From NCBI GenBank assembly GCA_030704615.1, contig CM060731.1, forward strand, positions 78,988,001 through 79,052,000: a stretch of 64,000 nucleotides of DNA. The letters are read 5' to 3'. Both the position numbers and the translations under genes were made by a program. The notes beneath the pieces were generated by a model. It did no database searches, was not told the origin of the DNA, and was given only the letters and a program-made list of their open reading frames with translations. Shown here in pieces: positions 6,016-53,822 of this stretch. This DNA comes from Takakia lepidozioides. Taxonomy: Eukaryota > Plantae > Bryophyta. Each line of letters begins with the position of its first letter. Positions within the stretch are counted from its first letter, which is position 1.

Positions 6016-6017
6016 GC

Positions 6018-11312: not shown

Positions 11313-11314
<2 letters not shown>

Positions 11315-13233: not shown

Positions 13234-13236
<3 letters not shown>

Positions 13237-23800: not shown

Positions 23801-23817
23801 TTGCATGCACAGGAACC

Positions 23818-28687: not shown

Positions 28688-28719
28688 GCCTTGACATAGG
28701 AGACGTACTTCAATATATA

Positions 28720-28812
28720 CTATAGGGCCCACCCCCGAAAGGGGGCAGTAGCCGTGAGGCGAAGTGGCTCTCAATTACGCCGGCTGCGTCCGGAGTCTTT
28801 TTTATCTCTCTC
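28720..28812 (-). repeat. Inverted copy of the hairpin repeat at 6437-6512
   Basis: cccccgaaaggggg stem-loop and flanks match the reverse complement of 6437-6512. Confidence 0.75.
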
Positions 28813-29824: not shown

Positions 29825-30685
29825 GCCCGTCACAGCCCCACAGGCCACTGGGCACAGCCTGTCACAGCCCCTCACAGCCCGTCACAGCCCCACAGGCGAG
29901 TGGGCACAGCCTGTCACAGCCCCTCACACCCCCACAGGTGAGTGGGCACACCCTGTCACAGCCCCTCACAGCCCCACAGGCCATAGGGCACAGCCTGTCA
30001 CAGCCCCTTGTAGCCCGTCACAGCCCCACGGGCCACAGGGCACAGCCTGTCACAGCCTGTCACATCCCGTCACAGCCCCACAGGCCACAGGGCACAGCCC
30101 CTCATAGCCCATCACAGCTTGCCATAGCCTGTCACAGCCCGTCACCATAGGGCACAGCCTGTCACAGCCCGCCACAGCCCATCACAGCCCATCACAACTT
30201 GTCACAGCTCGCCACAGCCTGTCACAGCCCGTCACAGCCCCACAGGCCTCAGGGCACAGTCTGTCACAGCCCGTCACAGCCCCACAGGCCTCAGGGCACA
30301 GCCCGTCACAGCCCCAAAGACCACTGGGCACAGCCTGTCACAGCTCACCACAGCCTGACACAGCCCGTCACAGCCCCACAGGGCACAGGGCACAGCCTGT
30401 CACAGCTAGCCACAGCCTATCACAGCCCCTCATAGCCCGTCACAGCTTGCCACAGCCTGTCACAGCCCGTCACAGCCCCACAGGCCACAGGGCACAGCCT
30501 GTCACAGCCCGCCACAGCCCATCACAGCTTGCCACAGCCTGTCACAGCCCGTCACAGCCCCAAAGGCCACTGGGCACAGCCTGTCACAGCCCCTCACAGC
30601 CCCACAGGGCACAGGGCACAGCCTGTCACAGCCCCACAGGCCTCAGGCACGGCCTGTCACAGCCCCTCACAGCCCGTCACAGCCC
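29825..30685 (-). repeat. Degenerate (cacagcc/ggctgtg)-core tandem array in the retroelement leader
   Basis: Dozens of cacagcc cores; the same array in the opposite orientation at 41715-41985. Confidence 0.95.
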
Positions 30686-32221: not shown

Positions 32222-32538
32222 TGATAAAGAAGAAGAATACAAGCACGAGCTCACAAATCTGAAACATAAACTCATGCATATATAACCTCATCACTCAAAT
32301 ACAAGTCAAGCCAAGTGCATCCCACGCCATGGGGAATCCACACTACGGCGCCATAGCTAGGCGCGGTGAGGCTCAACTCGAGAAAGATGAGCCTTCCGCG
32401 CTTGCTGTGAAGATAACCACTCCAGGGCCTAAATCTGCCTTGACCCTTGGATTGACACTTGGGCCAATCCCAAATGTCAATATGTAAAAGCTAGCTATTT
32501 CCTAGCTAGTTTCACACTAGTGGTAAAATAACTTGACA
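32222..32538 (-). repeat. Terminal repeat A1 (317 bp) of the Gypsy-like element
   Basis: Near-identical to 53325-53641 (about 4 substitutions by eye). Confidence 0.95.
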
Positions 32539-33536
32539 ACTCTCTGCATCATCGGCGTGTTTTTTGAAGGTTTGCCACGCACGTTTCTCGGCAAGGTTGC
32601 GAACATCTTGCTCCAACAAGAAATCATCGCGGGTCCATGCATCGCCCAAGCCGGTGTTGTTCATCACGTGCTCTTTATGCTCCATCATGATTTGGGCGAC
32701 CGACAGGCCTCGGCACAAACACTTGACGACCCAGGCTTTCAATTCCTCGCTAATGTGTGGTGCATAGGCGTGGCGGGTGTTCCTGAACTCTGCGGACTTC
32801 CCATGCAAGGGTTTCCCTTGCGAGGGTTTCCCTTGCGCATCTGTATGCTCCATGTTGTTGTAGTACGTGAGGACACAGATGTCAGGGGCGAGATAGCATT
32901 GCTGGACCTTGAAACAGCATTGGCAACCACGTTTGTAAGACTCTTCATACTCCGACTTCTTTCTCCTTGGGCCTTTATGAGGGCAAGATGTTCCAGCACC
33001 CACAAGAGGTCCTCCACGCTTCTGTTTTGGATCCTCCACTATTGCCTTGTTGGTGCGTTTGTCATCAGGACCGTAGCAGCATTGATACCTGGACATAAAA
33101 TTCTAAAATCGATATCCAACGACTTAAGAAAGCATAAAATCAGAGAACTCGTGAAACCTAAAAATGGCAACAGACATGCAATGAACGTCAAAATGACTGA
33201 GGATGGTGCACACATAATACTGGACATAAATGTGTTGGCTTTGGGTGCTTTTCGCGAGCCGGGTTCCACTTTAGAATGGACATTCATCCAAAACTGAGTG
33301 GGGTAGTCCTCCAAACTCTCCTCTCCCAGGACGAAGTCACCAACTCTATCCCAAGGTATGCAGGCCTTTTCAACAATCACTCGCACACCCATAAACCCAT
33401 ATTGCGTCTCACTCTTCCAATGGAGATCCTTCCTGTTGAAGGGTCCTGGTTTTGCTGTTTGCAAACATTGTCGAAGAGGCCGTATAAGCGGGCTTTCCGT
33501 GATCAGTATATCATCGGGTTTTGCTTCCACGTCCAT
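32539..33536 (-). pseudogene. MULE transposase, N-terminal part
   Basis: IPWDRVGDFVLGEE, YQCCYGPDD, KRGCQCCFKV, HAYAPHISEELK, TRDDFLLEQDVRN, KKHADDAES; continues in frame at 53823 (VRMWRDQNPAFIFFYQ). Confidence 0.88.
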
Positions 33537-33680
33537 GCCCTATACAGTACAAAGGACAAGCTTCTGAACATGCAAGAAACGCGCCGCAGTACAAGACACA
33601 ATCGACAACGTGCCACGAGAACAGTGCGCACGTCCGCGGCTGCTAGCAAGTGGCAGGCGGCAGGGATGCAAGTTTGAATT

Positions 33681-34027
33681 GCAGCCCTAAAAATGGAGGG
33701 CTCGGATGGGTTATGGGAATGGACGGTGGCGATCCTGCGCCGTCAGCGGACTGGATGGCAGGGGACTAGGCAGCGGACAGGCGGGCAGACTGCTGGGCAG
33801 CCGACTGGCCAGCATCGGACTGGCAGACTGGAGGGCAGCGGACTCGTGGGCGGGGGACTGGCCACGCGGCGGACGGGGGCGCGGACGCAGTTGCTGCAGT
33901 CGCGCCCGCGGCTAGGTGACCGCGCGCAGCGACGGGCGGGTGCTGGGGAGCCGGGTGTCCGTGCGCGGGGCCCACCAGCCACATCGCACGTGCCCATTGA
34001 AGACCATATTATCTTAAAATGAGAGGC
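33681..34027 (-). mobile_element. MULE left terminal inverted repeat (~350 bp)
   Basis: Matches 63587-63933; terminus GCCTCTCATTTTAAG; flank 34028-34036 is the reverse complement of ATTGCAATG. Confidence 0.92.
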
Positions 34028-34229
34028 CATTGCAATAGTTGTATGAACGTTTATTGAGAACAAAATTTTGTTTTAATTGTAATAAATAATAACAACCTAC
34101 AATTTTTGTCAATACATAACAATAAATAGTGTATGTGATTCATAAATGTAATGACCAAAGTTGATACATTTATTGTAGTAGTTGATTTTTTTTATATCCC
34201 TTAAGACTCTTTAATGCCGCCGTAAGGAG

Positions 34230-35810
34230 TCCAATGGGCAATTATAAATAATAATCTACATATTTTTATTTCCTCCCTCTTAGGACTCCTTAGGGTTGTC
34301 CTAAGGAGTCCTAAGAATAATTATAAATAATAATCTATATCTTTTCATTTTCCCACTCTTAAACTTCTTGGGGGTGCCTTAAAGAGTTTTCTAAGGGCGA
34401 CTATTTATAGTAATTCATATATTTCTATTTCTCCTCTCTTTCAACTTTTTAGGGCCACCATCTGAAAGTTTATTTAAAGATAGATGTCCATGCATTATAA
34501 ATGGATATATGAATATTTATCGAAAATAAAATTTCAGTAAATAGCTGTATGAACGTGACAAAATTTTGTTTTAATTGTAATAAATAGTGACAACCTACAA
34601 ATTTTGTTGGTAGATACCAATAAGTGGTACATCCGATTCATAAATTTAATGACCAAAGTCGATACATTTATTGTAGTACTTGATTTTTATTTTTATTTTC
34701 CTAAGGAGTTTTAAGGGCAATTATAAATAACATATATATATATATATATATATTCTTTTTCTTCCTCTTAGGACTCCTTAGGACTGTCCTAAGGAGTCCT
34801 AAAGGCAATTATTATTTATTTATTTATTTCTCCTCTTAGGACTCCTTAGGACAGTCCTAAGGAGTCCTAAAGGTGTATATATATATATATATTTTTTTTT
34901 CTTCCTCTTAGGACTCCTTAGGACTGTCCTAAGGAGTCCTAAAGGCAATTATTATTTATTTATTTATTTCTCCTCTTAGGACTCCTTAGGACAGTCCTAA
35001 GGAGTCTTAAGGGCAAATATATATATATTTTCCTCCTCTTAGGACTCCTTAGGACTGTCCTAAGGAGTCCTAAGGGCAATTATAAATAACAATTTTTTTC
35101 TTTCTTTTCTTAAGACTCCTTAGGACAGTCCTAAGGAGTCTTAAGGGAAAAAAAATATATATATTCCTCCTCTTAGGACTCCTTAGGACTGTCCTAAGGA
35201 GTCATAACAGCAATTATATATATATATATATATATATATTCCTTTTACGAGTCCTTAGGACAATCTTAAGGAGTCCTAAGGGTAATTATATATTAAATAT
35301 ATATATATATATTCTTTCTCTTAGGACTCCTTAGGACTGTCCTAAGGAGTCCTAAGGGTGTATATATATATATATATTTCTTCCTCTTAGGACTCCTTAG
35401 GACTGTCATAAGGAGTCCTAAAAATAATTATAAATAATTTGTTTTGTTTTGTTTTGTTTTGTTTTTTTTCCTCTTCTTAGGACTCCTTAGGACTGTCCTA
35501 AGGAGTCCTAAGGGCAATTATAAATTATAATTGTTTTTTTTTTTCTTCCTCTTAGAATTCCTTAGGACTGTCCTAAGGACAATTATAATTAACATTTTTT
35601 ATTTTTTTTTCCCTCCTCTTAGGACTCCTTAGGACTATCCTAAGGAGTCCTAAGGGGAATTATAAATAATAATTTATATGTATTTATTTTCTCGCTCTTA
35701 GGACTCCTTAGGGCCATCCTAAAGAGTCTTAAGAACAATTATAAAAAATAATTTATATCTTTTTATTTCCCACCTCTTAGGACTCCTTAGGAGTGCTCTA
35801 AGGAGTTATA
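34230..35810. repeat. Array of ~37-bp palindromes (CTTAGGACTCCTTAGGAC-W-GTCCTAAGGAGTCCTAAG) with AT-rich spacers
   Basis: About 20 copies, best preserved at 34765-35660, within an AT-rich element with longer direct repeats at ~34040, ~34490 and ~35870. Confidence 0.95.
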
Positions 35811-36719
35811 TATATAACAATTTATTATTGTAATTTATATATTTCTTTTTTCTCCCTCTTGCGATTATCTAGATAGATGTCCATGCATTAGAAATGGATG
35901 TATGAACATTTATCAAAAATAAAAAATTGTTTTAATTGTAATAAATGATGATAACTTACAATTTTTGCTAGTAGATACCAATAAACGGTACATCCGATTC
36001 ATAAATATAATGACCAAAGTCGATACATTTATTGTAGTACTGAATTTTTTAATTTCCCTAAGGAGTCGTAAGGGCGTCCTGATGATAATTTATAACAATT
36101 TATTTATTTGTTTAGTTTTACTTATTTTTAGTTACCATCTTTTTAGTCATCACCTAAATTAAAATTATTAAAAGTTTAGTTATCAAAGTTATATTATTTT
36201 ATGAACTAAATTAGTAGATGTTTACTATTTAAAATAATCAAAAGTTATTTTAAATCTGACTGTTACTTTATTGCTACATGGAACTAAACATAGGCTTATT
36301 ATTCCACTTAAGTTTAGAAATGGTTTGGCATCCTTCTATCTTTGCTAGACTGAGCAATCGGTGAACCAGATGCGTTTCTAGCACTTGTCCCGTTGTGGAT
36401 GCTCTAGGAGGCTTCCCTTGATTGTATTGCCTTATGGCCCTGTTGAGGTTATTTTTTCGTCGTTGTTTTTTTTTTTGTTTTTTGTTTTTTGTTTTTTTTT
36501 CTTCTTGGGTGAACAGGGGACCATGCCCTGGATTAGATTTATTAAGTTTCTCCCGGGAAAAACAATTAATACCCCTGATTACACCATGAGGCACACACAC
36601 AGTAGTCAGTGAGAATTGAACCGACCTCCTAAATTTGAGTAACAAGGCCTCTGTCCCCTTTACTTTTTTTTCTTTTAAAATAAAAAATAAAAAAAATCTT
36701 TAAGTTTATAGTCTTGTAC

Positions 36720-37560
36720 TATTGTGTGCTCATCATAGTCTTTGTATAGGTGAATGTGGGTTTACCGTTTGAGCAATTATGGGTTGTCCATTGAACAAAA
36801 TCAATATACACATATGCGATCAGAACTATCCTTATTTCTATAAATCTCAATCTATATATGAGAGCTCCATGTAACCTCCAAAGGCCTTGCATGGACTTGA
36901 CAATGGTAGTGCCCTTTGTATATATATTGCCAATGAGCATGATCAAATTTTGCAAATATCCAAGATCAAACATAATAGCTAGCATGCAGGCAAGATCAAT
37001 GGACCCAAATGCATTCTTAAAAGCAATGTATAATGTTAAGTATAAGTCTTCATGAATGAAACGTGCATCTTCTAGGGCAGAGATAATGAGCTGGTTTTGT
37101 CGAGTTGTGTTTGTTGCAGTTCTAAATTTCTCCTGCGAGTCAATGAAGATTTGGTGTTGTTCTCCAAATGATGTGAGGAGGGTGTTGAGGGTGCCGGGAA
37201 ATAATATATAGGATATTGGCGAGAGCTATAGGCCTGCAATTGCCTTATTGGGTAGGTCATATTTTTTGTAATGAATATGAAACGACAATTTTTCTAGCAT
37301 TTGGGTATTTAATGGAGTTGATAGCACATTATAAAGAAGTGATGCTGGTGTGGGTCTAATGCTTTGAGTATTTCATTAGCTATGTTGTACGGGCCTGACG
37401 TGTTGGAGTTGGAGAGGGATTTGAGGCATGAGCGATAGATCTCTACGGTGAGGTATGTGCTAAAGTTGATTTGTAGGAGTCATCTTTGTTCAAGTTTGAA
37501 TCCATCTATATCAAGCCAAGGTAGTGTTTGGCTTGACATGTACTACCACCATATTTTTCT
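36720..37560 (-). mobile_element. Degenerate LINE RT fragment
   Basis: Minus-strand NCRPIALANILY (~37240-37205) and YIAFKNAFGSIDLACMLAIMFDLGY (~37030-36955), broken by frameshifts. Confidence 0.75.
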
Positions 37561-38037
37561 GGAAGACTCGGTAATCAAAGGAAGGTTCATCCGATCCAGT
37601 TGGATCGCATAACTCACTTCATATCACCAAACCCTAAATTCACTTGATATCAAACAAACTATATCTTTATTTTTTGTAGAGAAACACTAGTAATTTCCAC
37701 TAAGTTATAAAATCTTAATATGCACTTTGGCGATTGAATATTTTAAGCTAGTTTCTTTTGGAAACTAGCTTTGGAAACAATGGAATAATGTAAGAACTTA
37801 ATACATGAGTACAATCTGATTGTACTTTTGTCTTGGGACAGTGTACACTCCTCCGTCGGGCCCTATTGTGATCCAATCTTCCCCACCCCATTTTAACTAT
37901 TTTAGAATTGGTAAGGTGATGGGGTGAGATGCAAGGTTTGGATGTCTTTATCACCCGGTCAGTGTGGCTTGTATCATCCCGATCTATGTCACTTCTTTGT
38001 CTGGTGTAACTTCCTCCTAGTATATATTATACTTCCA

Positions 38038-38500
38038 AGTCAAATTTCATGATACCAAGTGAGAATTATGTTATGGTTTTAGTCATGGTTAACTAGAATT
38101 ACCTACTTCTAGTTAACTACGATATTTTGGATATTTATTTGTATTTTGTATGTTGGGACTTCATTTGGTCTCATATGCCAAGTGCGGTGTCAAGCCTCAC
38201 TTGGGACACGGGGATAGGTTTTTCCCCTTGTGAGGGTTGAGGAGGCTCATCTTCTATTTCAAAGGCTATGCTCGCTGCATTGAGCTCTCACTAGTCATGG
38301 TGGTGGAGTTGTGGCAACATTTTGTTTACTCTCACGAAGCCAAACGTGTCCCATATGTGTTTCAACGTGTTTCGGATATTGGGTTCGTCGCGGGGGAAGT
38401 AGATTTTCATCAAGCATGATTTTCTAGGATTGTGTGCTTGGATTGTGTGTAGACAGCGATGTGTGTTGTGGCACGATGCTTGGGTGCAGTGTGCACGACA
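38038..38500 (+). mobile_element. Possible solo terminal repeat (A+B-like) of a related retroelement family
   Basis: Ends gacagcgatgtgtgttgtg...gcacgaCA, like repeat B; patchy similarity to repeat A (ccaagtg, aggctcatctt). Left boundary uncertain. Confidence 0.4.
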
Positions 38501-38569
38501 GTTACAATAATTGGAGTTCCACTGATCCCTTCCGTGTCACCTCGGATAATCACTGTCGTTTTACATTAA

Positions 38570-41500
38570 TACTAGGGTAGCCTATGCCGCTGGCCCAAGT
38601 GTCCAATGTCATCTAAGTCCAAGTGCAATCCTCCATGTATCCAAGTGCGTATCCTATGTCGAGGCCCAAATGCGACCTCTAGGGTAGCATGTGCAGTGGG
38701 CCCAAGTGTCAAGTATCATCTAAGTCCAAGTGTAGGATCTTTTTATGTATCCCAGTGCGTCTCCTATGTCAAAACCCAAGTGCAACCTCTAGGATAGCCT
38801 GTATCTTTGGCCCATGTGTGAAGAATTGAAAATCTAAACCAAGTGCAATTTCTTATGTATCCAATGCGTCTTCTATATGGAGGCCCAAATACGACCTCTA
38901 GTGTAGCCTATGCCGGGGTGAAAGCAGACTACGGTGTCTATATTTTTGTGTCACAACAGTGTTTTACATGACATAGTTTGATTCAATTGTACCTTAGAGA
39001 CAAATTTTTATTACAATGATGAAATGGGACTCACTCTTATGTTTCCAACTACTACAAGATATAATCTTTAAATTCTCACCAAGACATGAAGAGGATTTGT
39101 CAAAGTAATGGACTTTAGAAAATTGCACACGCAGTGTCACACTCCATAAAAAGACTTCTTATGGACTTTTTGCACTCACTATAGAAAACAAATATGATAA
39201 AAAGGACTCATATTAGTATTTCTCTACTCTTTAAGATAATAAAGTCATATGGAAAATATCAAAAAAATGAAATTTCTTATTTTCTATATATTATTGTGAG
39301 CCTCGAAAAACTGATTTTTGCCAAAGTACATGAATGCATGAAAACAAAGTAAAACAATGGACTTGCTTCATTAAAAGATACATTTCATGTAAATGAAGAG
39401 TAGCCCCAGTCCCACTATACGATATAACGAGAATATAAAATATAAATAATAAAAATAATAAAAATAATAGCTTGTACTAGGAAAAATAGAAATAATGCCA
39501 TAGTGTCTGTTACTGTCAACTTTAGATGGTTCATATCTCTTAGCATAGATGAATCTAGCGATTACAATTTTTTCATAATCATCAAATCAAAACTCTGGAA
39601 AACCTTGGGACTTCTTGTGTAGGCCACACAGCGGACTTTTTCTAGCCACCTTAGCTTGCTTTCACCCGCCGCTGGCCCATGTGTGAAGAATTAAAATCTA
39701 AGTCCAAGTGCAATCTCCTATGTATCCAAGTGCGTCTCCTATTCGAGGCCCAAATGGACCTCTAGGGTAGCCTGTGTCGTTGCCCCAAGTGTCCAATGTC
39801 ATCTAAGTCATCTAAGTATAATCATTACTTTCCCTCAGAGCCTACGACCAGATTTGAACCGTCCCTTGATATCTCTCCCGTCGAGGCTCCAACCATTGTC
39901 CCATGAATGCCCACTTTGCCTTTTTGCTATTTTTTGTGAATTTCCAATGACCAAAAGTACTTGGAATTCCACATCTTCCACATCGCAGGTCCAAAAATCA
40001 TGAGACCAAGCCCGTGCACCCCTCCTCGTCGAGGGCTTTCCAACGGTACCAAGCACCAGGGCTGGGGCCTTGCGGTTTGGGACATCTCAACGTGACAAAA
40101 CAAAACAAAACAAAACAAACTGGCTTCCTTCATATATTGACTAGGGTAGCCTGTGCCGCTGGCCCAAGTGTCAAGTGTCATCTAAGCCCAAGTGCAATCT
40201 CCTATGTATCCAAGCGTCTCCTATGTCGAGGCCCAAGTGCGACCTCTAGGGTAGTCTGTGTCGTTGGCCCATGTCTGAAGAATTGAAATCTAAGACCAAG
40301 TGTTCATATGTATCCCAGTGCATCTCCTATGTTGAGGCCCATCTAAGCCCAAGTGCAATCTCCTATGTATCCAAGGGCATCTCCCATGTGCGTCTCCCAT
40401 GTCGAGGCCCATGTAAGCCTAGTGTGCAATCTCCTATGTATCCAAGTACGTCTCCCATGTCAAGGCCCGATTAATTTTTTTCCATGAATTTCATTGAGTA
40501 GTAATATATCCAAGTTGGCCCAAGTATCCACTATCATCTAAGCCGAAGTGTCCAGGTGTAAGATCTTCTATGTATCCCAGTGCATCTCTTATGTCGAGGC
40601 CCAAGTGCGACCTCTAGTGGAGCCTATGCCGTTTGGCCCATATGTGAAGAATTGAAATCTAAGACCAAGTGTAATTTCCTATGTATCCAAGTGCATCTCC
40701 TATGTCGAGGCCCATCTAAGCCCAAATGCAATCTTCTATTCATGTATCCAAGTGATCTCCCATGTAGAGCCCCAATTGTCCATTGTCATCTAAGCCCAAG
40801 TCCAATCTCCTATGTATCCAAGTGTGTCCAATGTCATCTAAGTCCAAGTGCAATCCCCTATTATCAAAGGGCGTCTCCTATGTCGAGGCCCAAATGCAAC
40901 CTCTAGGGTAGCCTTTGCCGTTGGCCCAAGTGTCCAGAGTCATGTAAGCCCAAGTGCAATCTCCTATGCATTCAAGTGCATCTCCTATGTTCAATCCCCT
41001 ATGTATCAAAGTGCGTCTCCTATGGTGAGGCCCAAATGCAACCTCCAGGGTTAATTGGTCACGTTGAGACGTCCCAAATTGCAAGGCCCCAGCCCTCGTG
41101 TTTGGTACCGTTGGAAAGCCCTCGACGAGGAGGGGTGCACGGGCTTGGTCTCATGACTTTTGGACCTGTTGTGTGGGAGATGTGGAATTCCAAGTACTTT
41201 TGGTCGCTGGAAATTCACAAAAAATAGCAAAAATGGCAAAGTGGGCATTCCTGGGACAATGGTTGGAGCCTCGATGGGAGAGATATCAAGGGAAAGGTCT
41301 CTGGTTCAAATCTGGTCAAACAAAACAAAACAATATATGAAGGAAGCCAGTGCCATATGTGAAGAATTGAAATCTAAGACCAAGTGTAATTTCCTATGTA
41401 TCCAAGTGCATCTCCTATGTCGAGGCCCAAATGCAACCTTTAGGATAGCCTTTGCCGTTGGCCCAAGTATCCAGGGTCATGTAAGCCCAAGTGCAATCTC

Positions 41501-41714
41501 CTATGTATGCAAGTGGGTCTCCTATGTCGAGGCCCAAGTGCGACCTTTAGGGTGGCCTCTGCCGTTGGCCCAAGTGTCCCAAGTGTCAACTAAGTGTAAT
41601 CCCTTACGTATCCAAGTGAGTCTCCTATGTCGAGGCCCATCTAAGCCCAGTGCAATCTCCTATGTATATCCAATCATTATTGATATTTCCCGTCTCTAGG
41701 GCCCATCTAAGTCC
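38570..41714. repeat. Large block of the modular A/B repeat
   Basis: Module A runs with module B at ~39840-40135 (inverted) and ~41060-41320. Confidence 0.9.
38916..39667. mobile_element. Non-autonomous TIR element (752 bp) with 4-bp TSD, possibly Sola-like
   Basis: TIR GGGTGAAAGCA/TGCTTTCACCC (imperfect to ~25 bp); TSD GCCG at 38912-38915 and 39668-39671; the empty site ctatgccgctggccc is present at 38582. Confidence 0.85.
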
Positions 41715-42701
41715 ACGGGCTGTGGCCTTTGGGGCTGTGACCCCTGTGACCTGTGTCGGGCTGTGACAGGCTGTGCCCTGTGGCCTATGTGGTGAGGGGC
41801 TGTGATAGGCTGTGGCCTTTGCGGCTGTGACCCTGTGACCTTTGTAGGGCTGTGACAGGCTGTGCCTGTGGCCTTTGGGGTTGTGATGGGGTGTGATAGG
41901 CTGTGACATGTGGCCTTTGGGGCTGTGACCCTGTGACCTGTGTAGGGCTGTGACAGGCTGTGGCCTGTGAGCTGTGTGGGCTTGTGCTGGTCTGTCGTGG
42001 CCAGTGTTGACCTGTGGGTGGCCCGTGTTGACTCGTGGAGGCACTGGTGGACTGCCTAAGGACTGGCATGTGGTCTGGAAGGCCGAATTTTGAAGCTCGT
42101 GGAGGGCGGTTTGAGGAGTATCTTCATGATATTCCCATGGTCATGCAAGTGAGGGAAGAGAGGAGAGGAAGAGTGTTGGGATGAGGGCATGTTGGGGTTA
42201 GGCATTGCTTTAGCTTCTCTTCCTCGTAGTTTCCACCCTCTCATTAGGCCAAGACCTTTCCGTAGGTGGAGGCAAGAGTCAGTCCGGGTTTGGGCTGGGG
42301 TGTCCTTGCAGGAGCAACACCGTGGAGTTGTTTTTGGTGTGGGGGAGTTGTCGTTCTGATTTCTTGTGTTTGGATCCCCTCCATACCTGCATGCTTGACT
42401 GTGCGCCATGCTAGTTTTGTGTGGGCGCTTGTTTTTATAGGTGATTGGTCCGGATTTGATCACCGGCCAGTCCTAGAGCATGCTGTCGATGGTGAGGCTG
42501 GGGTGATGACCAGCCAGACCATCATTGTTTCTCCTATGGTGAGGTTGGAGGTGATGACCAGCCAACCATAGGAGTGCTTGCGGTGGATGCAGGTACAGGT
42601 GTAGGCTATGTTAGGAACTTAGTATTCCAAACCATAAGCCGCAACAGGTTCTCTACCCGGTTACCTTGTGGAGAGGGGTTTAGGGACATGTTCATGACCG
42701 G

Positions 42702-45619
42702 TTGAATGTCAACACGGAGGTGCCACTAGTTGCTGGGGACAGTGCCGGTTCGAGCACTAGCGATACTAGTGGGTACACGAGACGAGGTGTGCGGTTTAGG
42801 CCACCTTCACCTCCTGTGTCTTCCACGGAAGGTTCTGATTCGGATTGTGAATCAGGAGGACTCATACCGGCAGTGCAAGTTGTTTCTTTGCCATTGTTGT
42901 GGGACACAATAGAGGAGATGTATGGAGCTACCAAGGGGCCACGAAGGTACTCTGGGGCGGTGGGCACCATCGGGTTGGATAATTTTATCCAAGAGTTTGA
43001 TAGTTGGTGTGATTTGCAGCAAATGCGCAATCCACAACTATTTACGCCGTTCATGGCATGGAAAGGGCTGTTTCAGCACCTTGAAGGGCCGCCTATGGAT
43101 GATTACCATGAGTTCAGGCGGGGGCATGAGGTTGAGATCGAGGAGTGGAGGATGTACTGGTCACCCGACTATGTCTCCATCACTACGGGCACTAGAGCCA
43201 CGAGGGCAGTGGCTACACCTGCCGCTGCACCGGCAGCTTCAGCAAGTAGCAGTGGAACTAGTGGGACTGGTGGTACAGTAGCTACGACGTCCACCCAAGC
43301 CACTACCGCACCAGCACTAGCACCCGTGCCTGCCTTCAACCCTGTTGTGGAGTTCTTCGAAGAGTTGAGAGGGAAGTACCAAGGGGTGAGGACAGAGAAG
43401 TTGCGGAGCTTGCAAGAGTTCCAACGGAAGCCGACCGAGAGCTTGAGGGAGGCTTTCACTCGCATGAGGCGCTTGATAAATGTAACCCAAGGGGTTACGG
43501 AAGCTCAGGCAGTCCAATTCTGGTATGGGATATTGGACAAGGAGCTGAGGAGAAGGGTGCGGGATGCAACTCTCCTACAAGCGCCCAACCCACCTTAGCA
43601 AATGTGTTTTTGCTGGCAGAGCGGATAGAGCTCAACATGGTGGAGGAACGAGTGGTCATGGTGGGATTTGCTAAGGAGACACCACGGGGTAGTGGTGCTC
43701 CTAGCCAACCACTACCTCAACGTGCTCAAGGCAACAAGGGGGCTCAGGTGAAGCTCAGGGAAGGGCAGAGAGGACCTCAGATGCAGGGGTCTCTCCCTTC
43801 ATTTGCTGGCCAACAACGGGCGGATGTGGTGTGCTGGACATGTGGAGGACCCCATGTCAAGAAGGATTGCCCAGAGGCAGGCAAAGGGTCGGCATATGCA
43901 CAGCCTGCACAGTTGCAGTGTGGGCATTGTGGCAAGCACAGGCATGGAGAGGCCCAGTGTTATGGTTTGCATCCTGAGTTGCGCCCAGGCCAGTTCCAAG
44001 GGAACAATGGTGGCCGGGGGCGAGGTGGAGCAGCCCAAAGAGGACGAGGTGGCCAGCCACAAGGTGTAGGCCACGGGCAAGCTCAATGTGGCCAAGGACG
44101 CGGAGGTCAGGGTGTTAACCAAGGCATGGCCAACCGGCTTCAGCAGCTAGAGCGGAGGCTCGCTGCCATGGCTACAGCTCAGGTGGTACCGGCTCTAAGG
44201 CCGGATGGTCCACCTCCTGCTCCTGAGGGAGGAGATATGGGAGGCATGGGATTCATGTGTGGAGCAGCACTACCACTAGTGCAGGTGGAGTCTGCTGCAG
44301 CCGTGACTCGAGGAGCAGCACGAGTTCCTGAGCCACGAGGTGCAGAGGTGGAGTTGGATCCACAGCGTGGGGAGGCAAGCCGTCAGGCTAGGCTTCCTCA
44401 GTCATTCACATTGGCGGAGACAGTGTCGACGCCATCCATGGCACCTAGTTCTCGCCCGACGGTTACCGAGGCGGAGGTTACTATGCCATTGGGGAGAGCT
44501 ACACGGGTAGCACCACTACCTAGTGTTGCCAAGGCTGCGGCAGCTAGTTTGCTGCTAGGAGTGGCCACATCTGTGTGCCAGGCTCCATTGTTCTCGGCTA
44601 CCATGATTGCGACGCCGGGGGTAAAACCAGCTGAGGTGTTCAGGCTGGCAGCTACACTCTGTGAGAGTGGGGAGGTTACTTCATCTTCTGCGGAGATAGT
44701 GGGAGGTGTAGTGCCGGAGGGATCCTCGGATTTGAGGGTCAAGACTGCCACGGCGGCGCCATGGCAAGCTGCAGCTGCCAGGTTGATGGAGCTGCCAGCT
44801 AGGCCAGCCATTGAGCGCGCCATGGTGACACCTGGAGTTGTCATGTTAGACAACCAGGATGGCATTTTCTGTTTGAGTGGACCGGCAGGCAAGAGGTACC
44901 GGCCACTGCGGGTCTTGTTGGACTCGGGAGCTCAGCCATTGATGCTGGGCAGAGCTGCTATTGCAGGCTTGGGCCTCACGGAGGCGGATATGGATCCTTG
45001 TCCTTTCCAGATACAGACGTCTCTGGGAGGATCGGAGCAGGCTCGGGGCATGTCACGGCGTGAGTTGGCTATCAGACTACGGCCGGATCACCCTATAGAT
45101 GGCTCAGTGATGCGAGCCAAGGCCATTGTGACAGACGTAGTCTCATACGATGTCCTGGTTGGTGGGGCAGTGTTGTACCCCATGGGCTTCACCCTGGATT
45201 TTTGGGAGGAGTCAGCTTCCTATAGGCCTGCATGGCAGTCAGGGGAGGGCCGGCGTGTGCAGCTCCCTGTGACGTTCATAGGAAGAGTTGCGGTTGCCCA
45301 GCGAGGCAAGATGCCGACACTAGCAACATTCACAGCGGCAGTGAGTTGGCCTAGAGAGTTGCTTGAGGGCAATGCTCATTCAGAGGATGTACCACCTCCG
45401 GGAGAGCAGGATGACATGTATGGTATGGCGGAGTTGCCTACCATGATTGCTCAGACTCCATTGTGGGGCACGAGCAAGGATTTGCAGCGGGATGCTGATC
45501 GACGGGTGCAACAAGCCTGGGTGGAGGCTTTTGTACCGTCAGGAGAGGAGGAGAGTGCGGGGATTGCACCAGGACCACCTCAATTGTCTCCATTGGACAC
45601 CACACCTATTGTGTGGTAG
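42702..45619 (+). pseudogene. Gag (two zinc knuckles) and aspartic protease
   Basis: FQRKPTESLREAFTRM gag motif; CWTCGGPHVKKDC and CGHCGKHRHGEAQC; VLLDSGA and YDVLVG protease motifs. Frameshift ~43590; in-frame TAG at 45617. Confidence 0.9.
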
Positions 45620-46345
45620 TATCCAGATGAAGGCATTTGTCTTCTGGACTTGTTTGGCGGGATCAGCACCGGATTGGCTGCTGTGTTACAAGCAGGTGTA
45701 CGAGTTTGGCGTTACCTGTATGTGGAGAGGGATGAGACTGCACAACACGTTTCACTTCGCCATGTTGCTCAGTTGGTGCAGCGGTACCCTGAGTTGTTGT
45801 CGGTGTCTGCAATTCGTGGATATCAGCAGGCCTTGCCAGCAGACATTTTGTTGCTGGGGGCGCAAGATTTGGAGCGGGTTGGCTCCATTGATCTGGTAGT
45901 GGCAGGTTGGCCCTGCCAAGGGCATTCATCAGCCGGGCATGGCAATGGATTGCGAGACTCGAGGTCGGGTCTGTTTTGGGAGATGGTGCGGGTTTTGCGC
46001 CACTTGCAGCTTCATCAAGCTGTATCTCCAGCATATATCTTGGAGAATGTGCCACTAATGGGCGATTCTCGGGCCAGGGTGATGGCCAGTGTGCATCAAG
46101 TCCGGTCGTGGCTTGGGTCAGCGTGTTGCTAGATGCAGCTACAGTGGGGTCACGGGCTCATCGTCCACGGCTATGGTGGACTAACTTGATGCCACCCGCA
46201 CTGCTCAAGTGTGCATTTGATGGGGTGCAGCGGCCAGCACATCTCACAGTGGATAACATTCTGGACACAGGGAGGCAGTCTCAGCGTGTGAGACACGATG
46301 ACCGTTCGCCTTTGGCAGTGGTCAACAAGGTGGGTCAACCACTCC
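45620..46345 (+). pseudogene. C5-cytosine DNA methyltransferase domain within the pol frame (C-terminally truncated)
   Basis: Motif I LDLFGG (45644), motif IV GWPCQG (PCQ 45911-45919), motif VI ENV (46043), motif VIII HRPRLWW (~46160). 1-bp frameshift ~46122; motifs IX-X absent. Confidence 0.93.
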
Positions 46346-49110
46346 TTTCAGCAGAGACGTACAAGAAGTGCGAAAGCTCCAAGACATCGGAAACGTGGTA
46401 CTCGTTGACACGTGAGGCTTTCATGGAGTACATGTACACGGTGAGATACATCTTCCTTCATCTGCCCTTTCCACATTCCTGCTTCCACATGTTTGTTTCT
46501 GTTTGTTTTCCTTGCCCTTGGGTTGATGCAACTCTCGTGCATTCCCTTGCAGCAAGACATTGCAGATGCAGGGGAGCGTGGCAAACTGGAATACTATAGG
46601 TCAACCCCTGAGGAGAGAAGGACAGCAAAGGGGGTTGAGACTCACATCCAAAAAGAGATGACCGCTACAAAAATGACTATAATGAGTGCTTTTGTGAAGC
46701 AGTTGAGAATTGCCGACCCATCATTCGGATCACAGTTTCTCTTGGAGATAAAAAACCATTATAACAAGCCAGGCAAGCCAGAGATGGCCCAGGAGAAGTT
46801 ACACAGGTTGTCTACCGCCGTTGTGTCTTCAGAACAGAAGGTGAAGTGGCTACAGATATGGAACTCCAATCCCACAGTTAGGGATACCCACATGTTCCCC
46901 AGGCCGGAGAAAGAGAAGAAGACCCAGCGTGTCATTCCAGTCAGTGACAATGTGCTGGACACGTGGCTTCACAAGGCCACTTACTGGAGCCAGGTGTGAT
47001 GTCCTTTCCTGTGTCACTTTCTTTTCTCTTTTCCTGTCCTTCTCTTTCCATTGCCTCTCACATTCGCTGTGATTTTTTTTGGGTTCATTCTTGCATTTGA
47101 ATTGTTTTGCAGTTGGAAGAAAGGGCACGGTCGGTTCTGCATACTCAGCTGGCTGACTATGGCATCACTATGACAGCACCAAAGGTCTCCTTCGAAGCAT
47201 ACATGAGGAAATGGAGAGCCACAGTGTGGCACTCTTGTTTCTTTAGAGAGTTCAGCAAGGAGGGTGGCATCAGTCGAACACATGACCTTGACCAGCAAGA
47301 AAAAGGAGATGAAGCCTGGAAATGATGCCTTTACAGGTGCACACCCTGGGCCGTTCAGGCTACTTAGTGTGCTGTGGTTGCAATGTACTGTGACGCATAC
47401 AGTTTAAGGGGGTCTTCCTGGTGTGATGGAAAAGCTGAGAGACAATAATTGCATTGCATAATGAGGCTGTCTCTGTTCCTGCAGGTACATAAAGTTTGTT
47501 CTCATGGAAGAGAATTGCTTGGACAAACATCCAGATTTCGTGGACCTCTGGCTTGTCCCTGCTGGCAATCAGACCATGTTTACTACTGGGATCTTGCATG
47601 ACTGGGGCCCAGACCATCTTTCTTCTTGTGGTTGGTATTTGGATTGCCCTCCCTCTGAGACCCCAGCTCCGGAGGTGTCTTTGAGGAGAGAGAATGAGCG
47701 AATTGCAGCCACTGCCGCAGCAGCCGACCTCGACATTCATGAACGAAATTTGAGGACTCTTGCAGAGAAGGAGCCTCCCGCTCAGGATACCTCGGGTAGA
47801 GGTAGAAAGGCAAAGGGGAAAGATTTTGCTGGTGTTGTGGGGAAAGGAAGGGGTAGAGGGAAGGTGGCACAAGGGCAGGGAAGTGTTGCAGATATTGGCC
47901 CAGTGGTGCATGTCCAGCAGACTCCACCGCATGGTAGGGGATCCGTGAGAAAGAACAAGGGGGTGGTTGATCCCAAGGACCCGTACCATGCAGTGGAACA
48001 TCCGACGAGGGTCATTCGCCCTACCAGGTTGGAGATGGCCAACGTCGGATTCCTTGCAATGATGGAGTCCAAGAAATCTGATTACAAGGGCGAGCCATCA
48101 CCAGTGTGGGAGAGGATTGTAGAGTTCCTCGGCACGGTGCGTGTTCTCTTTTGCTTCTTCTCTGCAGTGGGCATGGATCGTTTCAATCCTCTTGAGTATT
48201 CCATTGTAATTTTGTTTGCAGGCTAAAATGACCAAATCCTGGGTGAACGGGAAGGAGAAGCAATATGCAGCCGAACTCATAATCTTGGACATCCCTGATG
48301 GGTTGGCAGTCCCGGATGTCCCTCCATCGGGTGCTTGTCCGGGTTGGAATGCTTTTGATGAGCGCTACTGGCGGTGGGTTTTCTCCTTTTGCAATTTTTT
48401 CCTATCCGATGCAGGTGTTTTGGTGCTCATACAGTCCGCCGACGTTCGCTGTCGCCGTGCACTTGCCAGCTATTTGAAAGCCTCGAGCATGAGAGTCCTG
48501 AAGACATGGAATTGTGTGAACAACATGTACCTTACGAAGGGGGATCGTCTGGGAGAGATGGTAAATTTTCCTTCTTCTTTCTCTTCTTGGTGGTTCTCGG
48601 ATGGAGTTGTGTAGGTCGCTCAAACTCGTATGTAGGGGCCTGATTTTTGAAGCTTCTTAGTTCCTTCTGGATGTGTTGTTCGCAGACTTGTTTGTTTGAA
48701 GCTGTTTGTCTCGTCCGAGTGCATCCACCAACGACTCCAGCCGGCATTTCGGAGTTCGCCATCACTCATGGGGGCAAGTTCATAGACGACAGGACAGATC
48801 CTCCAACGGATGACATGCACCACAACTACGTCGACAACAATGTCTGTTTGCGAAGGGGGAATGGGGTTCCTTGTAGAAGGGCGAGGGAGAGGAGCCCGGC
48901 TTTCATTCAAACGATTGTGGAGTGCTGCACCTACACAGACGCCAAAGTTCTGGATTTGTCAATGGGCACAGGTTCGTCTCTTCAACAATCGGATTTCATG
49001 AGGTTTGATTCAGCTTGCACTTTCAGTACTTCCCACCGTTCCATATGTGTCTTCAATGTCTGCTTCCTTCATTCTATTCCACTGCAGGTGCTTCGTACCA
49101 CGCTTGCTGT
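46346..49110 (+). pseudogene. Spliced gene fragment ending in a beta-class amino-(N4C/N6A) DNA methyltransferase-like domain, inserted in the retroelement
   Basis: GT-AG exons near 46346-46440, 46553-46993, 47112-47337, 47484-48136, 48222-48560, 48686-48971 and 49088-. Motif IV-like LIILDIPDG (48288), FLSDAGVLVL, RERSPAFIQTIVECCT, motif I VLDLSMGTG (48947). Confidence 0.72.
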
Positions 49111-49111
49111 G

Positions 49112-49755
49112 GTGTAGGGGCGTTGAATGAAGCACGCACCCTGTCACACACCATGCACCTAGCCACGAACTGTTGCACCTCTTTATGCATACCACGCCAC
49201 CAATACTGCCCCTGCAGTAAATTGTGAGTGCGTCGCACTCCAAAATGCCCCAACTCCTCATGGGCATGCCGCACTAACCGTGCACGCTGTGTGGGGTGAG
49301 GCACAATCCTCACTCGACCATCCTCCCACACTCGAAGTAGGTGTATCCCCTCCCACTTGAACCTCTTGGCTCGTTGTAGGATCCGATCCCTCTCCCTGGC
49401 AGTCACAATGGCTGCCGTGTCTCCCGTGCGGAGGTAGTCCAACACAGCCGAATCCTCATGTATATCTCTGGCACCACCTAGCTCATCACTAGCCTTAGGG
49501 TCCTCAGACACTCCGTCTACAGTCATCCCTGTTGTAGGTCCAATCTGACCTCCCAATGCCAAGATAAACAAAAATGCAGATGCGTGCCATCCCGGCACCA
49601 TCTCCTCGTCCGTCTCACCATGCCACCGAGCTCCAGTGTCATCCTGCTGGCTCATGCATGGATTGCGACTCAATCCATCCGCATCCCGATTGACCAAACC
49701 CGGTCGATGCACAACCTGAAAGTCATACTCCTGGAGTATAAGTGCCCACCGTGCA
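49112..49755 (-). pseudogene. Inverted Gypsy pol segment: RNase H C-terminus and integrase HHCC zinc-binding domain
   Basis: ARWALILQEYDFQVVHRPGLVNRDADGLSR; HEELGHFG...CMVC...FNAP. Confidence 0.92.
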
Positions 49756-49905
49756 GGGGGGTGCTATTCTGTGAGCCTGGAGGCGTGAGCCTGTGAGCCC
49801 AGGAAACCGTGAGCCCAGCACAGGCTCACGCCACGTCAGCATACATACACGGCCTATTTCCGCGGGTGTCACCTATTTCCGCGGGTTGATCAGCCATTTC
49901 TCGGG
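49756..49905. mobile_element. Probable terminus of the DNA transposon carrying the amino-MTase gene
   Basis: Abrupt switch from Gypsy pol to GGGGGGTGCTATTC, then clustered gtgagcc/ggctcac and cctatttccgcggg subterminal repeats. The partner end was not found. Confidence 0.5.
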
Positions 49906-50460
49906 AATGCAGAGTGGATATGTTACATCCATTGTATCCATTGCATCCATGCAGACGTTATCAACATACCAAGCCCTCACAAGTTTATGTGGGTACGTCG
50001 TGAGGAGGTGCACACTGACATGATCTAAAGCGGAACCCTGCGAAATCTTTTCTTACTCACCACCCTTGCGAACATGCCAGGTATGTGCGGGAGCATCATG
50101 GATGCTCATTAGATTTGAGAATGCCTCACAGCTCTTTGATGAGGTGGACTTCACCGTGATGGATTCACCAACCATTCTTCTAGCTGGAATGGTTTGGAGA
50201 CCAACGACCAAATGATGCGGGAATGCTGTACACGAACCAAAGTCGTTTGTTTGTTTTTGCAATGCACTGAAGTCTGTGAGGTCCACAGAACACTAAATAG
50301 ATTGAAGGAACAATCCGGGCAGTCCATGCAACCCCCATCTCCAACAATAGTTTGTTCCCATTAATGTGCATCCACGCACACATTGCAAACAGGACAACAA
50401 GGACACACAACCATCCCATTTCAAATTTGGCCCCGAATAAAACCAAAAGAAAACTTCATA

Positions 50461-51000
50461 TCAAGTGTCACAGTCATCAGAATCAGTCTTGACCTCCTGT
50501 GCTATGTCATCCACAAAGATTCTGGCCCCAGCACCACGTCTTCTACCACGGCCGGCAATGGGTGGACTCCGAGTGCCATGAACGGTCATGCTTGTTGCGA
50601 GTGCCTCCGCATAGACAGGTAGCACGCAAGACCGAGGAGGACTGGAAAGAAGTCCAAATAGGTGTGATAGCCGTGGAGGGCAAGTGGAAGCACGCAGACT
50701 CCTGCACATGTCGACAAAAACCCATTCAGAACACAATATGCAATACACAAGTCCAACGAAGAGGATGTCTGCCATGTGAACTTTGCCTCAAGAAGAGTGA
50801 TTCTCGATATTGAAACAACAATGCAAGCATCCACAGGTTGAACTTACTCACAGGCAAAGTCGGAGTCCAGCTCCTTGTCGGAAGTCTCCTCTGTATCAAT
50901 ATCAGCGGGACGGGGCTTTGGAAGAGAAGTGTGTCCACCCAAACCCATCAGGAGGTTCTTGTAAATCTCAGCATCCCCTTCAATCCCAAAGAGATGTCAC
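50461..51000 (-). pseudogene. Inverted 3' exons of the amino-MTase-like gene
   Basis: The minus strand from ~50999 reads (TGA, likely CGA)HLFGIEGDAEIY, the expected continuation after GTGASYHAC; donor gtaag at ~50847; probable last exon ends at 50461. Confidence 0.7.
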
Positions 51001-51478
51001 CAATCATGGGATTGGGCTACAGGTGGAGTCTTGACTTCGCAGGACCGTTGCCACTGACTATGCGCCACCACAGATATGTGTTGGTGATGGTGGAGCACTT
51101 CTCCAAGTGGATTGAGTTGGTTCCATTGCCTGACAAGGCTAGTGAGGGGGCTGCGTATGCATTCTTGGATCGTGTGCTTAGCCGATTTGGTGCTCCAGCT
51201 GAGGTACTCACGGACCAAGGGAGAGAGTTTTTGGGGGAGTTTTCAGGCTTTGTGTGATAAAGCCTTGATAGACCACCGCACCACTTCTCGGGATCATCCT
51301 GAGGCCGATGGCTTAGCAGAGAGAGTTGTTCAGACGGTGAAGAGGGGTTTGCGCAAGTATGGCTTGCAGAAGGGACACCTAGGAGATTGGGATCTTCAGG
51401 TTCCTTGGTTAGCCATGGGCTACAGGTTCAGCAAACAAGCATCACTTGCCTCCTTCTCACCATATTTCCTTCTCTTTG
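51001..51478 (+). pseudogene. Gypsy integrase catalytic core (DDE)
   Basis: GYRWSLDFAGPLP, VEHFSKW, VLTDQGREF, HPEADGLAERVVQTVK, FSPYFLLF; frameshift ~51235. Confidence 0.93.
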
Positions 51479-52312
51479 CAGAGATCTGGGAAGATGGCTT
51501 TGCATCCTACAATGCCTACGGAACCATTTCAGAAATGGGGACTAGACTTTGTTGGACCAATTAACCCACCAGCCCAGAATACACAGAACAAGTACATAAT
51601 TACAGCCACTGATTATACTACGAAGTGGGTGGAAGCTAAAGCTTTGAGGGACGACACAACCAAGTCCACAGCAAGGTTCCTGTATGAGAACATACTTACA
51701 CGATTTGGCTGTCCCTTGGAATTTATCAGTGATCAGGGAAGTCACTTCATTAATGAGACCATTGAATTATTGACTAAAGAGTTCATGATTGTGCATAGGA
51801 AGAATACAACATATTACCCACAGGGTAATGGACAGGCAGAGGCTACCAACAAAATACTATGTACTATCTTGGCTAAGATAGTCAATGCAAACAGAACGGA
51901 TTGGGATACAAAGTTGCTGACAGCTTTGTGGTCATACAGGACTTCCTATAAAGTCACCACTAAGTATACACCATTCCAATTAGTTTATGGTATGGAAGCT
52001 TTACTTCCAGTGGAATTCCTGTTACCTACCATGAGAACGGAATGGGGGAAGAGAATGGAATTGCAAGATTCCATTAAGGTCAGAAAACATGAATTATACC
52101 ATGTGGGAGAAAAGTACGTGCTGATGCAGCTGATAATATGACCAGAATACAGATGAAAAGGAAGGAACAGTTTGATGAAGGCAAGTTAAAGACTTTTAAG
52201 ACGAGAGATTTGGTTCTATGGCTGCAGAAGAAGGGAAAGATTAAAGCTTCTAAGCTTAAATCACCATGGAAAGGACCTTATGTCATACAAAAGATGTATG
52301 ATAATAACACCG
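51479..52312 (+). mobile_element. Integrase core fragment from a different Ty3/Gypsy lineage
   Basis: PFQKWGLDFVGPI, TDYTTKWVEAKAL, ISDQGSHF, YYPQGNGQAEATNK, TPFQLVYG, WKGPY; more AT-rich than its flanks. Confidence 0.9.
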
Positions 52313-52898
52313 CCATTTGCCTGCAGCCATTCGTAGGGACACTGCTCAAGTCCTTAACCTTGACGATCCGGACGTGTGGGTACGTGCATGTGATCAGCGT
52401 GCAGAGTTGTTCAAGAAAGTCATGCCCATGGCTTTTGAGAACCTTGCCATTGCACAGCACCGTGATACGCTGAGGTATGCCACTATACGTGGTGGAGGAT
52501 ATCGTCCTGGGGTTCGGAGGTTTAGCCCTAGTGACTATGTTTATTTGCAGCAGACTGCTCCTACGACTCTGGATGTTACTGCAGGGCGTGTTATTCTGAG
52601 GGTTCGAGAGGTGTTGCCCTCAGGGGTCCTGATCTTGGAGGGTCGGGATGGCATGACTTGGAAGGACCATGTGCGTAATTGTGCGCCATGTCACCTTCCC
52701 AATGTCGATGACAGAGTTGACCCAAACTTGGCAGTGGTACCTGCAGGTTTGAGGTGCATGCTCTGTGGGTCTGCCAAAGGGGCAGCCACCATGCTGGTGT
52801 GTGATCGATGCTCAAGGGGTTGGCATATGGGATGCTTGACACCACCTCTTGATAAGGTTCCTGACGGAGATTGGTTGTGTCCACACTGCTTGGGATAG
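52313..52898 (+). pseudogene. Integrase C-terminal region with PHD finger
   Basis: AFENLAIAQHRDTLRY...; C4HC3 finger CMLC..CDRC..HMGC..WLCPHC, then stop. Confidence 0.92.
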
Positions 52899-53156
52899 TG
52901 GCAGTGGACATGACTGGAGGCAGCTAACAAGACATGGGAGGCCAAGCTCATAGGAGTCAATACATGAGATCCCAAGCTCAAGTTCACAGGTTGCAAGACG
53001 GCGACTAACGATGGGGCAATTCTTGCACCCGGCCTCTTGATCTATCGAGTTTGAGTGTAGTAGGGATAGTGGTGGAGGACTTAGTGAGGCTATGGTCACT
53101 ATCACATCTTGTGGCTACCTGGACTTAGAGGGACCTAAGCACCAGCTAGGGGGGCG

Positions 53157-53322
53157 ATTGTGTGGACTAGTGACTGCCATAGTTGGCAACATAGTGGCAG
53201 CCTAGTGACTGACTAGTTGTAGCCTAGTGGTGGACTAGTGATATACTAGTGTGTGGTGTGCACATGTGTTGTGTGGTTTTGGACAGCGATGTAGTTGTGT
53301 AGCGATATGTATGCGCACGACA
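53157..53322 (+). repeat. Repeat B1 (166 bp), directly after the purine tract
   Basis: Near-identical to 53641-53818; ends CACGACA. Confidence 0.95.
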
Positions 53323-53324
53323 GC

Positions 53325-53641
53325 TGTCAAGTTATTTTACCACTAGTGTGAAACTAGCTAGGAAATAGCTAGCTTTTACATATTGACATTTGGGATTGGC
53401 CCAAGTGTCAATCCAGGGGTCAAGGCAGATTTAGGCCCTGGAGTGGTTATCTTCACGGCAAGCGCGGAAGGCTCATCTTTCTCGAGTTGAGCCTCACCGC
53501 GCCTAGCTATGGCGCCGTAGTGTGGATTCCCCATGGCGTGGGGTGCACTTGGCTTGACTTGTATTTGAGTGATGAGGTTATATATGCATGAGTTTATGCT
53601 TCAGATTTGTGAGCTCGTGCTTGTATTCTTCTTCTTTATCA
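53325..53641 (+). repeat. Repeat A2 (317 bp)
   Basis: Copy of A1 (32538-32222); starts TGTCAAG. Confidence 0.95.
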
Positions 53642-53818
53642 TTGTGTGGACTAGTGACTGCCATAGTGGGCAGCATAGTGGCAGCCTAGTGACTGACTAG
53701 TTGTAGCCTAGTGGTTGGACTAGTGGTGGACTAGTGGTATACTAGTATGTGGTGTGTACATGTGTTGTGTGGTTTTGGACAGCGATGTAGTTGTGTAGCG
53801 ATATGTATGCGCACGACA
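53641..53818 (+). repeat. Repeat B2 (178 bp), right terminus of the retroelement
   Basis: Copy of B1 with a ~12-bp internal duplication; followed by GAGT. Confidence 0.95.
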
Positions 53819-53822
53819 GAGT

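Follow-up and report, generated by a model that had tools for sequence, protein, structure and literature searches.

Split direct repeats and a palindromic junction within the predicted LTR of a Ty3/Gypsy-type retrotransposon family represented in Takakia lepidozioides

The accepted view of LTR retrotransposons and retroviruses is that linear DNA is the integrating form and circles are by-products; in the standard scheme the primer-binding site and the purine tract set the ends of the linear reverse-transcribed copy. Transposition through a circle junction, in which abutted ends separated by a short spacer are cleaved by a DDE enzyme, is familiar from IS3/IS911 and IS30. We know of no well-studied Gypsy-type element that inserts at an internal palindrome from end-joined DNA. 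For retroviruses, the available sections of two papers indicate that HIV-1 integrase is able to cleave the palindromic two-LTR junction (PMC1905944) and that two-LTR circles may feed integration (PMC1905944, PMC4372172). Among Gypsy elements, a DIRS-like repeat structure combined with Gypsy domains is given for KnitGypsy-Dnmt3 of Klebsormidium nitens in the legend of Fig. 4c of de Mendoza et al. 2018 (PMC5890265); the accessible part of PMC6673714 contains nothing further on repeats. Gypsy-7a_cRei of Chlamydomonas has a PHD finger, yet its LTRs are described as near-ordinary in the portion of the source at hand (PMC9940879).

The element described here lies in a 64-kb stretch of Takakia lepidozioides DNA (64,000 nucleotides, hereafter the window). 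An earlier reading made from the letters alone (the sequence-only reading) had proposed an insertion bounded by GAGT, with a left end consisting of a repeat A alone and a right end composed of purine tract-B1-GC-A2-B2, and each of these parts was located. Repeat A1, which forms the left end and was inverted after insertion, begins with TGTC and spans 317 bp (32222..32538, minus strand); it is identical to A2 at 313 of 317 positions, all 4 differences being transitions. At the right end, a polypurine tract read in the sequence (53148..53156, plus; tract proper 53148-53154) directly precedes repeat B1 (53157..53322, plus), identified by blastn and terminating in GACA. Repeat A2 (53325..53641, plus), placed by comparison with A1, is followed by repeat B2 (53641/2..53818, plus), also found by blastn, which terminates in GACA at the base where other copies exit the stretch. 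Between B1 and B2 there are 5 substitutions over 166 bp, along with a difference of one 12-nt unit. The palindrome with its 2-bp spacer at the B1/A2 joint, GACA-GC-TGTC (53319..53328, unstranded), is the putative integrase cutting site; its sequence, GACAGCTGTC, occurs once in the 64-kb window, and the motif and 2-nt spacer recur in 23 other insertions. The A2/B2 joint (53636..53646, plus) matches the bases 5' of the primer site and the bases 3' of the purine tract, as would be expected if the predicted right end of a linear copy had been bluntly joined to its predicted left end. A blastn search of the right end against the window returned two B and two A copies only, both B copies lying in the right end itself, in agreement with the earlier statement that no B copy was seen upstream of gag.

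The two GAGT target-site duplications (32539..32542, minus; 53819..53822, plus) are on opposite strands and adjoin the two halves of a single open reading frame: the left-flank frame, on the minus strand, ends at GAGT and the right flank carries on in frame. Among homologues of the left-flank frame, 54 of 150 also match the right flank, the match picks up at the next residues across GAGT in 10 of the 10 homologues displayed, and a Pfam MULE domain was detected in one of six long homologues scanned. By these matches, the GAGT duplication bounds the insertion as proposed and splits one predicted MULE-type transposase gene in frame. The enclosing Mutator-like element, whose terminal repeats are 360 bp long and whose MULE-type transposase is decayed, runs along the minus strand at 34027-32539 and resumes on the plus strand at 53823-63933; this element was the target of the retrotransposon. 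Its 9-bp duplication, containing one mismatch, is likewise split between strands (34028-34036, minus; 63934-63942, plus). These two target duplications, one nested in the other and each divided between strands, establish that a later inversion flipped the left end of the retrotransposon. An array of 10-bp units is also divided between strands (29824-30700, minus; 41715-42000, plus; inverted similarity), which together with both duplications indicates that the inverted block spans from the inside of the array to beyond 34036.

The inversion sets 29824-34036 (minus) against 41715-63942 (plus), with one break within the 5' tandem array of the element. Inverted copies of an interspersed repeat, at 29523-29829, 39846-40140 and 41055-41317, flank the break region, and AT-rich tandem arrays (29-30% GC) at 34000-36100 adjoin the inverted Mutator end. 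Elsewhere in the window, a second copy of the right part of the Mutator-like element (16753-18763) is inverted and 96% identical to 60262-62042. A 666-codon open frame at 11245-13245 contains a reverse transcriptase (RT) domain (PF00078, E 5e-34) unmatched by the RT of this Gypsy family, and probably belongs to a LINE-type element.

Internally, the 5' untranslated part with its tandem array (29824-30700) lies within the inverted block (29824..32209, minus; similarity search), with the remainder of the array and of the untranslated part at 41715..42683 (plus; inverted similarity to 29824-30700). The segment at 42909..46359 (plus) is collinear with Marchantia protein P0128 and encodes gag with zinc knuckles, a protease-like motif (LLDSGA) and a C5 cytosine methyltransferase (PF00145, E 7e-13), with frameshifts near 43580 and 46120. 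The methyltransferase (45620-46340), at 69-75% identity to its top named liverwort and Sphagnum matches, had been overlooked by the sequence-only reading, as had the self-priming site described below; the features that it did list stood. An inverted piece (49107..49763, minus; PF17921, E 3e-17, and tblastn) holds the end of the RNase H region and the integrase zinc-binding domain. The integrase core, recognized from its translations by D, D and E motifs, lies at 51000..51480 (plus; PF00665, E 2.5e-11) with a frameshift near 51240, and the C-terminal part of the integrase with a PHD finger occupies 52315..52898 (plus; PF00628, E 2.2e-11; 79% to a Marchantia protein). Named protein relatives are closest in Marchantia (79%), Calypogeia (74%) and Sphagnum, followed by Pleodorina and Cymbomonas.

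Three inserts interrupt pol (46360-49070, 49760-50990 and 51480-52315). The third consists of part of an unrelated integrase and lies within the core, and other copies run uninterrupted through 52315; the first two gave no Pfam match. Neither a Pfam scan of open reading frames nor tblastn revealed an RT core between gag and integrase in the window copy. The window copy retains protease, part of RNase H and integrase, and it is dead: RT is missing, and the integrase is frameshifted and interrupted. Tyrosine recombinases gave no family match in 27 window ORFs or in 67 ORFs of L017, L077 and the window, a scan that degenerate short pieces could escape. The earlier assignment of the enzyme as a DDE integrase is borne out by the integrase domains and by the absence of the recombinase family from the ORFs scanned.

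Relatives were drawn from a scan of metagenome contigs in which 508 were confirmed and the best 80 loci (L numbers) were kept; viral contigs scanned for relatives yielded 0 loci. Copy counts refer to these relatives and to contigs from sequencing runs X1, X5 and X6; X1 may be the source sample of the window. Four relatives in two families are full A...B-A-B elements: L009 (duplication TCTC), L017 (CATA), L070 (GCAT/ACAT) and L077 (CCAA). The sequence-only reading had asked whether independent insertions, each with its own 4-bp duplication, all show A...B-gc-A-B; these four have the A...B-A-B form, with one mismatch in the duplication of L070. Across the dataset, TG...CA ends with a 4-bp duplication are seen in the window plus six independent insertions, exactly in L009, L017, L077/L059 and L012 and with one mismatch in L070 and L011; L035 was unmatched at the offset used. 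A 5-bp duplication that includes the terminal A was also considered and was rejected, as it fits the window, L017 and L012 and fails in L009, L070 and L077.

Left ends could be placed at 12 loci representing nine insertions, and when the window is added 10 of 10 begin at A without a preceding B. Ordinary LTRs at both ends of other copies, which the sequence-only reading had named as refuting its proposal, were not found: none of the 10 left ends carries B, and right ends are B-A-B or B. We distinguished 33 right ends in three families from 42 loci with a placed B, of which 11 are B-A-B, 21 are B only and one is unclear; the tally leaves out 38 of the 80 loci, which were too short, belonged to families 4-5, had no reference or were damaged. 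All but one (32/33) terminate at (G/A)ACA of B. The B/A junction is present in 23 further insertions from at least five families with the same motif and a 2-nt spacer, mostly GC or transition variants; the interiors of A and B share little between families, whereas the junction motif is conserved. Run X1 contains 32 contigs that exit at 53322 (flank agreement 0.37) and 16 that enter at 53325 (0.42), the flanks being mixed in both groups; run X6 gave one exit and one entry, and run X5 one exit. Element ends coincide exactly with the CA and TG of the junction and are accompanied by 4-bp duplications. The split-repeat layout is a general trait of the family and not a one-off.

More intact relatives show the coding order lost from the window. 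L009, L017 and L077 have gag-protease-(methyltransferase region) followed by RT-RNase H-integrase-PHD, and the protease-RT-RNase H-integrase order with Gypsy-type RNase H and an H2C2-DDE integrase was found in full-length L009, L017, L032 and L077. PF00145 is present in the window copy and L017 and had no match in 16 L077 ORFs scanned. The position of the methyltransferase varies: some relatives have it ahead of RT, others between the RNase H and integrase domains (P0025 versus P0036, P0054 and P0179), so that it has either moved or been captured twice. Two loci have aberrant right ends, each either a rearranged copy or an assembly effect: in L002 (integrase end +297 to +812) B-A is followed by an inverted half A, and in L033 (integrase end +4 to +285) half A and then B directly follow the integrase.

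The priming signals suggest how such copies relate to a linear molecule. A 13-nt stretch at A positions 151-163 (32376..32388, minus) is a perfect complement of the sequence directly after A1 (32210..32222, minus); the former is the predicted RNA 5' end and self-primer and the latter the predicted self-priming primer-binding site. In 8 of 11 left ends, which come from three families with differing sequences, the perfect complement is 9-17 nt long, compared to a maximum of 8 nt in 150 control windows; the other three left ends have 6-nt complements only, and the best match of L017 is elsewhere in A. A G-run is present in 62 of 66 loci with at least 300 nt downstream. Tf1/Sushi elements are known to self-prime and Tcn1 is predicted to do so, according to the available text of PMC6317226. 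With priming just after A1 and a purine tract placed ahead of B1, the linear copy would have B-GC-A as its LTR. From this placement we infer that the inserted element is a permuted linear molecule, opened at the GC junction and with its A end joined to its B start. The DIRS-like circular cDNA suggested by the sequence-only reading is not supported as stated, the primer site and purine tract being placed as for an ordinary Gypsy linear copy with B-GC-A at both ends; any circle would more likely be an end-joined two-LTR circle.

We consider it somewhat likelier than not that this Ty3/Gypsy-type family, whose copies begin and end at GACA-GC-TGTC, has an integrase that cuts the palindrome within the LTR, while the true cDNA ends are joined together. 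The RNA would start in the middle of A1 and self-prime after A1, and the usual copying would give linear DNA with B-GC-A at both ends. End joining would then unite the free ends (the A end and the B start), leaving the A2/B2 joint as a scar. The integrase would cut after CA on both strands at the junction adjoining the primer site, producing CA-3'OH ends with 2-nt 5' overhangs that would resemble processed retroviral ends and be inserted with a 4-bp stagger. One junction would have to be favoured over its twin, the simplest cause being that the left LTR becomes double-stranded first. A...B copies could come from cutting a one-LTR circle or from cutting both junctions.

The scar predicted by this scheme can be compared across insertions. 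The A2/B2 joint is a precise blunt join in 9 of 12; of the imprecise joints, L009 has filler and a purine-tract remnant, L069 a loss of 7 nt and L068 a loss of 2 nt, and these three could postdate insertion, that of L068 lying within an AT repeat. In L009 (10830-10870) and L014, the filler of about 17 nt is copied from nearby sequence and two purine-tract bases are retained. Indels affect 3 of 12 A2/B2 joints versus 0 of 23 B/A junctions (Fisher p 0.034), a comparison biased by the selection of some B/A junctions with a fixed-spacer motif. In family 2, B1 and B2 diverge by 0.073 within a copy versus 0.120-0.132 between copies, and a copy's own B1 is nearest in 4 of 6 cases; family 1 shows no such signal (0.074 within versus 0.059-0.075 between; own B1 nearest in 1 of 4).

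Since the two junctions of a two-LTR circle are identical, the mirror product A-B-GC-A...B should arise as often as the form seen here; it was observed 0 times, versus 6 for that form (binomial p 0.016). Because it is absent, the bias to one junction has to be assumed. The majority of right ends with B only (21/33) counts against the simplest circle model and fits one-LTR circles or double cuts. These ends are not mirror products in L011, L012 and L059, the three loci with both an intact B and a left end, which start with A alone. They can also be secondary, by deletion or short-read collapse, since L059 and L077 represent a single insertion site, assembled with an A...B structure in one contig and with A...B-A-B in the other. 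The B of L059 is a mosaic of L077 B1 and B2 states (6 B2-like, 4 B1-like), a pattern that does not separate deletion from assembly collapse.

Other routes to the same layout deserve consideration. A route like that of PAT and Ngaro, which is the one taken up by the sequence-only reading and which we regard as unlikely, would copy the whole A...B-A-B from RNA, join the ends on the internal B1/A2 template and cut the new junction, with B2 and the joint simply inherited. Its appeal is a repeat layout identical to that reported for PAT, Ngaro and VIPER in the available part of PMC4157794, and both the 9/12 precise joints and the absent mirror product fit the use of one new junction. However, the primer site that follows A1 and the purine tract that precedes B1 persist from family to family despite changed sequences, and priming after A1 would leave B2 uncopied; the L009 joint, with its tract remnant and filler, and the tendency of B2 to follow its own B1 in family 2 also argue against this route. 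Less probable again is that cutting precedes joining with no free circle, the integrase holding and inserting the left-junction halves of a linear copy and host repair then sealing the end of A to the start of B in the chromosome. Product and scar would be identical to those of the end-joined circle, and failed repair or a second cut could account for the B-only ends (21/33), but the same unexplained choice of a single junction is needed, along with a chromosome break per insertion.

TG...CA ends and 4-bp duplications are normal in Gypsy elements and would also follow from ordinary integration of a linear copy that already ended in A and B, with the junction as a relic. We find this very improbable, given that neither the primer site nor the purine tract lies at the actual ends of the element and that the junction motif is kept though the A and B interiors diverge between families. 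The heavy rearrangement of the window copy, with its inversions, inserts and lost RT, might by itself have suggested a one-off recombinant, tandem insertion or misassembly; this is hardly credible and is refuted at the family level by four independent full-length relatives with their own duplications, by the 11 different B-A-B right ends spread over three families and by the many run contigs that enter or exit at the same bases.

Returning to the reading in which an end-joined copy is cut within its LTR, we hold at even confidence the broader proposal that a distinct green-lineage branch of Ty3/Gypsy moved its attachment site into the LTR, such that the integrase would be a nuclease specific for a templated GACA-GC-TGTC palindrome, and end-joined two-LTR DNA, which leads nowhere in most retroelements, would be the sole route to fertile offspring. 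More speculatively, the cytosine methyltransferase of the element may shield from cutting both the second junction and the numerous junctions in the genome. If the mechanism is true, the family would provide a natural test of circles as genuine integration precursors and an integrase specialized for junction cutting, and protein relatives in Marchantia, a laboratory model, make testing practical. Surveys that demand two LTRs, as the plant reference survey did according to the available text of PMC6317226, would overlook split-repeat elements.

Full-text literature gave no account of the layout in land plants and none of the mechanism, most subscription papers, theses and Repbase lying outside that coverage. 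The sequence-only reading knew of no description in land plants; the type itself is not undescribed, the repeat layout being already in print for the algal KnitGypsy-Dnmt3, as given in the accessible text of PMC5890265. That single earlier mention makes the layout less surprising.

Relationships were assessed with an RT-RNase H tree of 60 rows rooted at the midpoint, in which L032 was left out for its short match and the RT-less window copy was not placed. A branch with 100/99 support has on one side 37 rows comprising split-repeat loci, methyltransferase-bearing proteins of Marchantia and Closterium, K. nitens protein P0255 and chlorophyte PHD elements, and on the other side chromodomain-bearing, seed-plant and animal rows; the label 'split' was given to L022 and L024 by junction motif alone, and 'chromo' is assumed for the Chara and seed-plant rows. 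P0255, which we do not equate with KnitGypsy-Dnmt3, takes a weakly supported position (81/79) between two split-repeat families, and the methyltransferase search named no Klebsormidium protein among 90 matches.

The available text on KnitGypsy-Dnmt3 (PMC5890265) mentions neither a junction palindrome nor primer sites and is likewise silent on duplication length, a PHD finger, mechanism and land-plant members, whereas the DIRS-like A...B-A-B arrangement, the Gypsy domains and the C5 methyltransferase within the polyprotein are shared with the family described here. Canonical Ty3/Gypsy elements, including Tf1/Sushi and Tcn1 (PMC6317226, as far as available), have in common with it the gag-protease-RT-RNase H-integrase order of intact relatives, a DDE integrase, TG...CA ends, a short duplication, a purine tract and self-priming; they differ in that here no full LTR stands at both ends, the ends fall inside the primer-predicted LTR and the integrase C-terminus has a PHD finger. 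The chromodomain that defines chromoviruses such as Tcn1 and Chlamyvir is replaced by this PHD finger, and the family is split from PF00385 rows in a tree without reference-named Tcn1, Phygy and Selgy. IS3/IS911 and IS30 are DNA elements whose transposase makes the junction, whereas here reverse transcription would copy it. Split direct repeats of the A1-B1-A2-B2 type are shared with PAT, Ngaro and VIPER, according to the available portion of PMC4157794. In the present family, however, a DDE integrase replaces the tyrosine recombinase, there are 4-bp duplications and an LTR-type primer site with a purine tract, and the methyltransferase is of the C5-cytosine type rather than the Dam-like type of PAT, Ngaro and VIPER. 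Finally, cleavage of two-LTR circles by HIV-1 and foamy virus integrases, as reported in the accessible parts of PMC1905944, PMC4372172 and PMC1180852, likewise involves a DDE integrase and an internal cut of a CA-spacer-TG palindrome; there it is a side route acting on an end-joined junction, whereas here the palindrome, with its 2-nt spacer, would be templated in the LTR and its cleavage would apparently be the normal route.
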